A DNA stretch of 64,000 nt from Saccostrea echinata (Eukaryota): contig NW_026889779.1 in the NCBI RefSeq assembly GCF_033153115.1, positions 16,554,001 through 16,618,000 of the forward strand. Direction: 5' to 3'. The notes beneath the pieces are model-generated. The model saw nothing but the letters and a program-made list of their open reading frames with translations. It was not told where the DNA came from and did not search any database. Each line of letters begins with the position of its first letter. The first letter of the stretch is position 1. Below, one piece after another: positions 36,860-39,606 of the stretch. A program made the translations under genes and the position numbers.

Positions 36860-37849
36860 CTACAAGTACACTCTTCTATACTCTTGGATTGAACTTTGAC
36901 AAGTGGGACAGACTTTCGTCCGTGTCATAATGGATTCTGCACACTCTGTACACAAGTGCAAATGTCCACATGGAAATACAGCAGCATTTCTCTGCCTTTC
37001 AAAGCAGACTACACAAAAAGCGTTGTCTACACTGTCATTACGTTGCCTTCTGCGAACTGTTGTGTTGTTTCTAGATAAATTACTGTTTTCATTCCTGGAT
37101 TCAGCTAATTCTGTTTCTGAGTCACTGCTACTACCATCAGCTTCTGAGTCTGAACTTTCACTTTGGACTCCTTCATTCTGAATTTGGATATACCTGATTG
37201 AATTTCTGATCCTTCTCCGTTTTTCAGGCAGTCGAACTACAAGTCGTTCTCCTTGAAACACTGCAGCAGGTTCTCTTTGGGGTAGAATTCTATTTATTTG
37301 TCTACGTTCTAATTCGCGAACTGCATTTCTGTCATTGTCCTCAGAAGCCATGTTAATTTCTGCTTCTTCCATGCTGTTCTCTTCATTTTCATTCTCCTGG
37401 TTTTCATACTCCATCCTCCTATTCACTTCTTGAATCATATTTCTGTTGTTGTCATCAATTTCATTGGAGTTGACACTTTTGAAGAGACTCTCTGACCATA
37501 TAAGACATAGACAAAATAAACAAAAACAGAATACCCAGCTCAATGCTGCAAGGAAGACATCCCCAGTGCCAAGTACTCCTTTCAGAACTTGTTTTACTAC
37601 CCAAATTACAAATGATGCCACTATCATCACAACCTTCCATACAAATGGTAGGCAAGTAATGCACGCGGAAACAACATGATTTGACAATTCAAAAACATAT
37701 CCAATCATAATATAAAGTGTTTGTCCCATCAATCTCAACAGTGATGTCATAAAGTCAATGAGAAGATGGTCAGTGGTTATTATTCCTTGGGTAGATGTCA
37801 TCAGTAATGCCAATGAAATCGATCCTATGAAAAAAAGAAAGAGAAACAT
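36860..37849 (-). CDS. RNF26-like paralogue: N-terminal transmembrane region, acidic/Ser-rich linker, C-terminal RING-HC (IAP/MDM-type) E3 ligase, up to 329 aa
   Basis: ORF with hydrophobic aa ~1-118, RING CVVC-x11-CGH-x3-C-x2-C-x10-CPTC and terminal RVYL. AATAAA on the minus strand at 36729-36724. Start codon uncertain because the first codons look like a splice acceptor. Confidence 0.85.
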   Translation of the reverse strand: MFLFLFFIGSISLALLMTSTQGIITTDHLLIDFMTSLLRLMGQTLYIMIGYVFELSNHVVSACITCLPFVWKVVMIVASFVIWVVKQVLKGVLGTGDVFLAALSWVFCFCLFCLCLIWSESLFKSVNSNEIDDNNRNMIQEVNRRMEYENQENENEENSMEEAEINMASEDNDRNAVRELERRQINRILPQREPAAVFQGERLVVRLPEKRRRIRNSIRYIQIQNEGVQSESSDSEADGSSSDSETELAESRNENSNLSRNNTTVRRRQRNDSVDNAFCVVCFERQRNAAVFPCGHLHLCTECAESIMTRTKVCPTCQSSIQEYRRVYL

Positions 37850-37952
37850 TGTGCATATTCTTTAACACTCGCACACTTCTGAATCCAATTTATTTCCTCT
37901 TTTCTCTCCAATACAAGATATATAGTTCTCACTGCAACTACCATTTACATCT

Positions 37953-37975
37953 ACTTTCACTTTTGTTACTTTCGG
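37953..37975 (-). promoter_or_regulatory. ISRE/IRF-element-like motif in the shared intergenic promoter
   Basis: Minus strand reads CCGAAAGTAACAAAAGTGAAAGT. AAAAGTGAAAGT fits the IRF1/2 consensus. Confidence 0.4.
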
Positions 37976-38316
37976 AACCTTTTTAATTTTTCCTTATTGT
38001 TTAAATGAAGTATCCAGAGAACAAGCTCAACTAAGATTATTTTATTTCAAACGATATTAATAATTTTACATAAATAAGCTCATTTATATATGTTATCACT
38101 TTGAATTACTTCACTTGTTGTTTTTTGTTGAGAAATTCAATTATAGGGCAAAATTTACATTGAATTCTTTCATATCTTATTTTTCGTTTTGTCTAGAAAA
38201 TTAAGAAGAATGTTTTGGCAAAAGAATGAAAGACTGAGACAGGCAACTAATAATTATTTGGTATAAGCGTAGTATATGGATGCAGTAAAGCTCTGAAGAA
38301 TATAAATGTGTGAAAT

Positions 38317-39606
38317 ATGGAAGATTTTGTATACTCAGTTTACTCAACTTTTTGCATTGTGTTTAGAAATATACAATATTACACAGCGTCCATCATAAAG
38401 ATAAACTATGATGTTATATCTGGTTTCATAGCCTTCCTGTCGGAAGTGATTCGTTTATTTGTAAAATGCATGGATGTAACGTTTAATGTTGTATTGACGA
38501 TTCTTGAAGCTTCAATTGACTTTTTAACAGAGTGCTTCAATTTTCTGAGAGCATTTCTCCAGTTACTATGGAAGTTTATTTTGTTATTGTTTAGTATTCT
38601 GGATCTTGTGTTAAAAGGTTTAGAACAAATAGTTTATTTTATATGGAGTGGTGGGAAATGGACAGCTGGGGCACTGTCTGCATCTTTGGAAAATGTCAAA
38701 GTGATAGCTGTGTCAATCTTTGAATATTTGGAGGTATTTTTCACTTTTGTCTTCAGGAATGTTTCAAGTGCATTATATTTGTTTGGAACATATTCACTGA
38801 ACTTTCTTATTGGTGCCTACAATTTTCTCACATGGATATTCTTTGGTGCTGCTTCGCTAGTGGACAATGCCATGATATACTTTGCAGATTCAGTAAAATT
38901 TGTTGTGGACTCTGTATATTATGCACTGACCGACATTTTCCCAAACACACCTAGAGAAACGTACATGGGCATTTTGATGATTGTTTTGTTTTATATAGCC
39001 CTAGTGCATGCTGTGAGCAGACTGTACAGTCGAGGCTACACATTTCCCTATCCAAATAATATGAACCACAACAACGTTCCATATCCAAGATTTGGAAATG
39101 AGTTTTCTGATGATGAATTTGGAATGAGTGCGGATGAGGAGAACGATAGCAATAATTCTGACACAGACAGTACTACGACATCTGTGGAAAATGAAGATGA
39201 TGATGATCTTTCAGATGATGATGAATTCTCTGATGAAGCATCAGAGTTGTCCGTTGTTGATGAGAGTGATGATGACCATTCTTCAAATGATAGTGACAAT
39301 TCAATTGAGCCCATTGATATTCAGCTCCCCGTGGAGCCACAGTACAACCTCAGGAGATCTGCCACCCCTAATAGACAGAAGAGAAAGTCAACTCAAGACA
39401 TGGAGAAAGAGATAGAACGAGAGCGTGAGAGACAGATGTGTGTTGTTTGTCAAGACAATAAAAAATCGGTGCTCATATTACCCTGTAGGCATATGTGTCT
39501 GTGTGTTGACTGTGGGCACAGAATTGCCAAGGCCAGACCACTTGCAAGGAGAATATGTCCTTTATGTCGAGAGAAAATCAGAACAATCATGAATGTTTAC
39601 TTGTAG
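38317..39606 (+). CDS. RNF26: E3 ubiquitin ligase RNF26 orthologue, 429 aa, uninterrupted coding sequence
   Basis: Long hydrophobic N-terminal half, acidic linker, C3HC5 RING CVVCQDNKKSVLILPCRHMCLCVDC...CPLCR..NVYL, matching the RNF26 signature CVICQD..K.VL.LPCRHLCLC...CPLCR....NVYL. Confidence 0.92.
   Translation: MEDFVYSVYSTFCIVFRNIQYYTASIIKINYDVISGFIAFLSEVIRLFVKCMDVTFNVVLTILEASIDFLTECFNFLRAFLQLLWKFILLLFSILDLVLKGLEQIVYFIWSGGKWTAGALSASLENVKVIAVSIFEYLEVFFTFVFRNVSSALYLFGTYSLNFLIGAYNFLTWIFFGAASLVDNAMIYFADSVKFVVDSVYYALTDIFPNTPRETYMGILMIVLFYIALVHAVSRLYSRGYTFPYPNNMNHNNVPYPRFGNEFSDDEFGMSADEENDSNNSDTDSTTTSVENEDDDDLSDDDEFSDEASELSVVDESDDDHSSNDSDNSIEPIDIQLPVEPQYNLRRSATPNRQKRKSTQDMEKEIERERERQMCVVCQDNKKSVLILPCRHMCLCVDCGHRIAKARPLARRICPLCREKIRTIMNVYL

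Follow-up and report, generated by a model that had tools for sequence, protein, structure and literature searches.

In RING ubiquitin ligases that end in an aromatic tail, the tail aromatic of one subunit touches ubiquitin at the dimer interface (in trans), and the linchpin residue, located after the last cysteine, acts on the E2-ubiquitin of its own RING (in cis). MDM2 and MDMX (MDM4), two paralogues of this class, are soluble proteins, and their genes are unlinked. Human RNF26, as described in the accessible text of PMC7332293 and bioRxiv 2022.03.24.485587, forms a dimer that is unstable and ubiquitinates itself, and controls STING signaling and endosome positioning; the same portions present it as an ER ligase that co-precipitates with itself and requires its penultimate Tyr432 for self-ubiquitination (PMC7332293), and as a binder of vimentin through its tail (bioRxiv 2022.03.24.485587). 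In RNF38, the R454Q substitution weakened E2-ubiquitin binding 11.6-fold, and the excerpted text of that study poses as an open question why suboptimal linchpins persist in some RING ligases (PMC12326332). At the oyster locus described here, the RNF26 gene stands head to head with a second gene for a membrane RING protein, its partner, in which the linchpin is not an Arg.

The window, i.e., the whole stretch of 64,000 nucleotides of Saccostrea echinata DNA that was analyzed, contains two divergent open reading frames (Table 1), the start codons of which are separated by 467 bp, and the products of which, P0001 and P0002, both end in VYL; the earlier note on this DNA had drawn attention to these frames, and they were indeed found intact where it had placed them. 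Both products carry a PF13920 RING that scored over the Pfam cut-off (53 bits in P0001 and 49.9 bits in P0002). Genome searches (923 Mb) found a single copy of each gene, and the closest named relatives of both were from Saccostrea (85-86%).

Table 1. Positions, within the window, of the divergent gene pair and its parts
Feature	Position	Strand	Remarks
Partner gene, RNF26-like (P0001, 329 aa)	36860..37849	minus	single-exon CDS, stop-free
Partner RING and 12-residue tail, C279-L329	36863..37015	minus	linchpin is Q318
Intergenic region, 467 bp	37850..38316	unstranded	AT-rich (28% GC); contains the 5' leaders of both genes
RNF26 orthologue (P0002, 429 aa)	38317..39606	plus	single-exon CDS, stop-free
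RNF26 3' UTR	39607..40866	plus	extent is the reach of one run's contigs

Transcript cover was assessed with Logan contigs from five runs of two studies, presumed to be RNA. Both genes were covered by contigs in all five runs, in which no splice joint was found within either CDS, and the listed variants were synonymous in five out of five cases in the minus CDS and in three out of six in the plus CDS. The 3' UTR of RNF26 contains AATAAA/ATTAAA signals at 40716 and 40848. On the intergenic side, contigs of the minus gene extended as far as 37933 and those of the plus gene as far as 38233, ends that cannot mark start sites, and none in the five runs crossed 37934-38232 (299 bp), a gap that alone is no proof of anything. 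An intron in a 5' UTR is possible. A 23-letter loose end at 37933, present in one run, was considered as a spliced 5' exon and rejected, as neither the window nor the genome contained a match to it; since the upstream sequence is purine-rich, an allelic indel is likelier. An acceptor-like AG, noticed by eye at 38195-38196 upstream of RNF26, is spanned by no contig. The contig-covered RNF26 leader holds three out-of-frame ATGs (38276, 38280 and 38306, plus strand), i.e., possible upstream ORFs, and the RNF26 stop region (window 39590-39662) is re-duplicated in short tandem, with three related copies of a tacttgta unit.

The 467-bp region is probably a bidirectional promoter shared by both genes, through which the partner and RNF26 would be co-regulated; the earlier description of the pair as 'co-transcribed' has to be dropped, since divergent genes can be co-regulated, not co-transcribed. 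The locus resembles the conserved head-to-head pairs known to share such promoters in its divergent orientation, the 467-bp spacing of its start codons and its adjacency across a large clade, but differs from them in that the oyster genes are likely paralogues.

Several neighboring features were also recorded. A spliced DEAD-box helicase gene (window ~20800-32610, plus strand; DEAD, LSAT and HRVGRT motifs), which from these motifs we take to be DDX31-like, is convergent with the partner gene, and a spliced gene with a fibrinogen C-terminal domain (PF00147) lies at ~12400-16100 on the minus strand; MMGT1 is likewise a name that we assigned from motifs. Repeats at 34000-35050 and 36400-36700 of the window had very high contig depth in the presumed RNA runs. 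A high-copy element, presumably Polinton/Maverick-like as labeled from its motifs, carries an IAP-like BIR-RING frame of 185 aa, together with frames that resemble polymerase, ATPase and integrase; it gave dozens of equal-score RING matches over many contigs, and two of its copies, G000:C33:4408000-4417000 (L133) and G000:C54:36466000-36475000 (L134), are 97% identical over 8.5 kb.

By its sequence, the plus gene is an RNF26 orthologue, and the earlier assignment to this family is borne out by full-length similarity to named RNF26 proteins. A search with P0002 returned 63 protein matches, mostly near full length and several of them named RNF26, from oysters, scallops, clams, snails, octopus, chiton and Lingula; identity was 78% to a JGI 'RING finger protein 26', and 39%, 40% and 32% to the RNF26 or RNF26-like proteins of Mactra, Argopecten and Littorina, respectively. 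The AlphaFold2 model consists of amphipathic helices (residues 2-110 and 117-210), a membrane helix (213-238), a low-confidence acidic linker and the terminal C3HC4 RING, which has an Arg linchpin and a penultimate aromatic residue, the human counterpart of which is Y432. It is to be noted that residues 2-210 of the oyster protein were thus predicted as two very long amphipathic helices, followed by one membrane helix, and that the same region of human RNF26 has been described as six transmembrane segments; in the model, the oyster membrane region may be a hairpin lying on the membrane surface. The database name of oyster RNF26 is 'cation channel sperm-associated protein 2-like'.

The AlphaFold2 model of the partner, P0001, shows a hydrophobic helix (residues 2-20), a long amphipathic helix (26-93), a helix at 98-152 with a membrane-helix portion at about 98-120, a low-confidence linker and the RING; only local structure was read from either model, because pTM was low (0.38 for P0001 and 0.27 for P0002). 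In the sequence, an ENxENENEEN motif is followed by the disordered linker and by a C3HC4 RING with a Gln linchpin. The common architecture that had been proposed for the two proteins therefore holds for the succession of helices, linker and RING, but not for the size of the membrane region, which is ~120 aa in P0001 and ~240 aa in P0002.

A direct search with P0001 found nine near-full-length relatives, from oysters and Pinctada (pearl oyster). Profile search of 1.84 billion representatives added at least ~25 further partners of the same layout, which topped the 150 matches listed; among the 16 members examined from this search, the two with species names came from Littorina saxatilis and Mactra antiquata. 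A further homology search, with a 29-sequence alignment as query, returned 12 proteins. All eight zinc ligands were invariant in 29/29 aligned partner RINGs, the partner RINGs formed one clade (support 99/90), and an ENxENENE linker motif was common to the oyster and Littorina partners. As judged from these alignments, the partner is a separate family, present in oysters, pearl oyster, clam and snail, that evolves faster than RNF26; between oyster and Littorina, full-length identity was 24% for the partner and 31% for RNF26, and the respective RING identities were 27/51 and 34/55. The bivalve-gastropod split dates back more than 500 million years, and since the family has members in Littorina as well as in bivalves, the partner gene is older than that split. 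The database names of the family are automatic ('cblA-like', 'hypothetical'). The best look-alike of the partner in the Atlas was a 272-aa chordate cluster (0.92), and P0237, an RNF26-like protein of 325 aa, adjoined the partner clade in the RING tree (84/82); it is possible that these two are non-mollusc members of the family, or short RNF26-like proteins outside molluscs.

Linkage in other molluscs was read from accessions and record lengths, the strand being known for this window alone. In Littorina, the partner (KAK7094987.1) and RNF26 (KAK7094988.1) have consecutive accessions on a single record of 49,992,114 bp, and RefSeq numbers that differ by 1,007; the pair of S. cucullata (XP_062584268.1 and XP_062584265.1) is on a single record of 741,903 bp. 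Elsewhere, partner and RNF26 were found on records of equal length (8,455, 63,580, 11,112 and 1,042,543 bp), and in the C. virginica clusters, several record lengths were common to both (12,103/8,546/7,115/5,171/4,722). Another match in record length, of 3,537 bp (P0129/P0045), is possibly due to chance and was not counted as linkage. In O. edulis, Pinctada and Mactra, the two genes share only a chromosome-scale record. Their accessions differ by 524 (Pinctada) and 609 (Mactra), and in the RefSeq set of C. virginica by 6,700. On a clam-like contig (L024), the partner was absent from the 4.7 kb upstream and 2.0 kb downstream of RNF26, and on L026 (29% identity), another gene lies upstream of RNF26. 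A metagenome scan, in which 80 loci were kept, yielded five RNF26-like loci and none with the partner gene; the metagenome loci L023, L025 and L033 weigh little, as they extend 286, 782 and 1,524 bp upstream. Linkage is either not universal or loose in some lineages; the pairing itself is old and spans two mollusc classes. The age that had been suggested for the pair was thus correct, but its restriction to oysters was not, as both the family and the linkage reach gastropods (Littorina).

Both RINGs are of the tail-dimerizing class. The IAP/MDM2-type tail noted earlier is indeed present, with 12 residues after the CPxC and a penultimate aromatic, and the folds closest to the partner RING were the RINGs of IDOL, cIAP, MEX3C, MDM2/MDMX and XIAP. 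The tail aromatic was retained in 33/33 partners and the E2-contacting Val/Ile in 31/33. The linchpin of these 33 was Gln in 26, Asn in 3, other residues in 4 and Arg in none, as against Arg in 29/29 RNF26 proteins and in 25/29 other oyster RINGs (a panel of 29 distinct RINGs, drawn from 150 scored matches). Since the aromatic and Val/Ile are kept, the Arg linchpin is gone and RNF38 R454Q is weak, the partner is predicted, by analogy, to be a dimer-competent ligase with activity reduced relative to RNF26; attenuation is the most that this would imply, since XIAP, with a Tyr linchpin, shows that a non-Arg linchpin can be active.

On balance, and with slightly better than even confidence, we favor the reading that this locus consists of RNF26 and an inverted-duplicate partner, likely co-regulated from the 467-bp region, the partner being a predicted lower-activity, dimer-dependent membrane ligase of the same pathway. 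The partner would have arisen long ago, when RNF26 was duplicated locally in inverted orientation; it would be membrane-anchored, dimer-dependent and low in intrinsic activity and, as the weaker of the two, could tune RNF26. From the analogy with human RNF26, we infer that the partner resides in the ER or endolysosomes.

A functional heterodimer of the two proteins goes further and is unlikely, though by no means negligible. It would be obligate or preferred, in the style of MDM2-MDMX: the partner, with a weak RING of its own, would use its tail to activate ubiquitin on RNF26-bound E2, and the shared promoter would hold the two proteins at a balanced ratio. The likeness to MDM2-MDMX lies in the RING class with its terminal aromatic tail, and in the presence of a strong paralogue beside one predicted to be weak; the oyster pair differs in having adjacent genes and membrane-anchored, putatively pairing products. 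The heterodimer would agree with the loss of the Arg linchpin in all 33 partners that keep the aromatic, with the fold neighbors of the partner RING and with the persistence of linkage in two mollusc classes; moreover, RNF26 dimerizes (PMC7332293), and pairs with one scaffold subunit have been considered as an explanation for suboptimal linchpins (PMC12326332), both according to the sections available. However, the Val/Ile conserved in 31/33 partners suggests that the partner may work alone, human RNF26 works without such a partner in the portion of PMC7332293 at hand, at least one clam-like locus has no partner nearby, and the membrane region and linker of the partner diverge much faster than those of RNF26. 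The linchpin asymmetry fits an MDMX-like heterodimer, and is also compatible with a homodimer that acts on substrates of its own; prediction of the full-length complex, performed without alignments, favored neither (ipSAE 0.05 and 0.08, against a mark of 0.34).

The linker of the partner is unalignable apart from an [LI]YPxL motif, often in the form LYPDL, which occurs in 12/33 members, none of them from oysters, and in 0/62 of the RNF26-search hits. LYPDL is the motif through which EIAV p9 binds ALIX, according to the available text of PMC2803184, and the motif hints that [LI]YPxL could couple the partner to ESCRT. A still broader proposal, which we consider doubtful, is a module predating the bivalve-gastropod split, in which a head-to-head, co-regulated, MDMX-like paralogue, devoid of the linchpin Arg though still equipped with the dimerization tail, would stabilize and redirect RNF26, and would, in many clams and snails, connect the dimer through LYPxL to ALIX/ESCRT at endolysosomal contacts.

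Returning to the favored reading, it is quite probable that the partner and RNF26 are paralogues, and plausible that the partner originated by ancient local inverted duplication of RNF26. Like RNF26, the partner has long amphipathic/membrane helices, a low-complexity linker, a terminal C3HC4 RING and a penultimate Tyr/Phe; unlike RNF26, it has a membrane region half as long with an extra N-terminal hydrophobic helix, a Gln instead of an Arg linchpin, no 4-residue RING insert of the kind seen in mollusc RNF26, and no [IV]x[IVL][QE]LP motif (found in 52/62 RNF26-search hits), although oyster-group partners have a similar VxLP. The CDS is a single exon in both genes, and in both proteins, amphipathic 100-degree periodicity was higher in each of seven segments than in all 300 shuffles. 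The 33/33 partners end exactly 12 residues after CPxC and have an aromatic in the penultimate position, as do the RNF26 of molluscs (28/29) and the other RNF26-like proteins (5/5); among other oyster RINGs, the proportion was 4/29. The C-terminal RINGs of IAP, IDOL, MEX3 and MUL1 (PF13920) share the RING fold and tail; nonetheless, Pfam reports no BIR, FERM, KH or GIDE domain in the pair, and the tail is at least 13 residues in 25/29 oyster RINGs of these types.

In direct comparison, the RING regions alone of P0001 and P0002 align (27% identity over 84 aa); DNA similarity between the two genes was nothing better than E 0.09, and at E<=0.001, a genome search with either gene did not bring up its neighbor. 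The ESM Atlas, queried with the partner, placed RNF26 clusters at ranks 2 and 3 (0.91), and gave no match to the partner N-terminus alone. An RNF26 RING profile ranked P0001 above 30 other oyster RINGs, if thinly (55.5 vs 54.3 for the next), and a partner profile ranked oyster RNF26 (49.5) below MUL1-like, MEX3-like and MGRN1-like RINGs, names that, as with Neuralized-like, we take from motifs. The N-terminal profile score of 28.7 exceeded the two reversed controls (22) and 160/160 shuffles (maximum 24.1), and was itself exceeded by that of the RNF26 N-terminus against its own reversal (35.8); HMM cross-scores between partner and RNF26 (19.4) were no better than those of reversed proteins (16.3). 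This N-terminal test has low power, because RNF26-like proteins outside the mollusc set score 16-22 bits (reversed, 21). P0186, P0205, P0233 and P0259 are presumably arthropod or cnidarian, as read from motifs. Trees of the RING (60 columns) did not group partner and RNF26, and five alternative groupings were unrejected (p-AU: partner with RNF26, 0.47; with MUL1-like, 0.42; with Neuralized-like, 0.37; with IAPs, 0.34).

Alternatively, the partner could be an unrelated membrane RING ligase, e.g., a MUL1-like or Neuralized-like RING with a membrane helix, convergent in layout and kept in place by the shared promoter. Homology of the N-termini is not demonstrable, one tree (121 rows, from an unfinished search) weakly puts the partner near a MUL1-like RING (SH-aLRT 81), and unrelated genes do form conserved head-to-head pairs, as stated in the accessible part of PMC13508932. 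However, a chance neighbor would have to share with RNF26 its long amphipathic helices, its RING subtype, a tail of exactly the same length with an aromatic in the penultimate position, and a CDS in one exon, and the Atlas features favor RNF26; we therefore regard an unrelated origin as rather improbable. A decaying or non-functional minus gene, which might be suggested by its fast sequence change and by contig cover that is shallower and patchier than that of RNF26 (a weak measure), is extremely improbable, since the gene is intact in dozens of molluscs, with eight zinc ligands invariant in 29/29, and all five variants of its CDS are synonymous.

No description of the partner gene or of its pairing with RNF26 was found in the literature on invertebrate RNF26, its paralogues and head-to-head pairs, as represented mostly by non-subscription papers. 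The RING class, head-to-head pairs and attenuated paralogues are each known, and their combination around RNF26 appears undescribed. An ancient partner that occurs in nature and consistently has a linchpin other than Arg would offer a ready test of why suboptimal linchpins persist, and would be a candidate for regulating innate immune or endolysosomal signaling in farmed molluscs.
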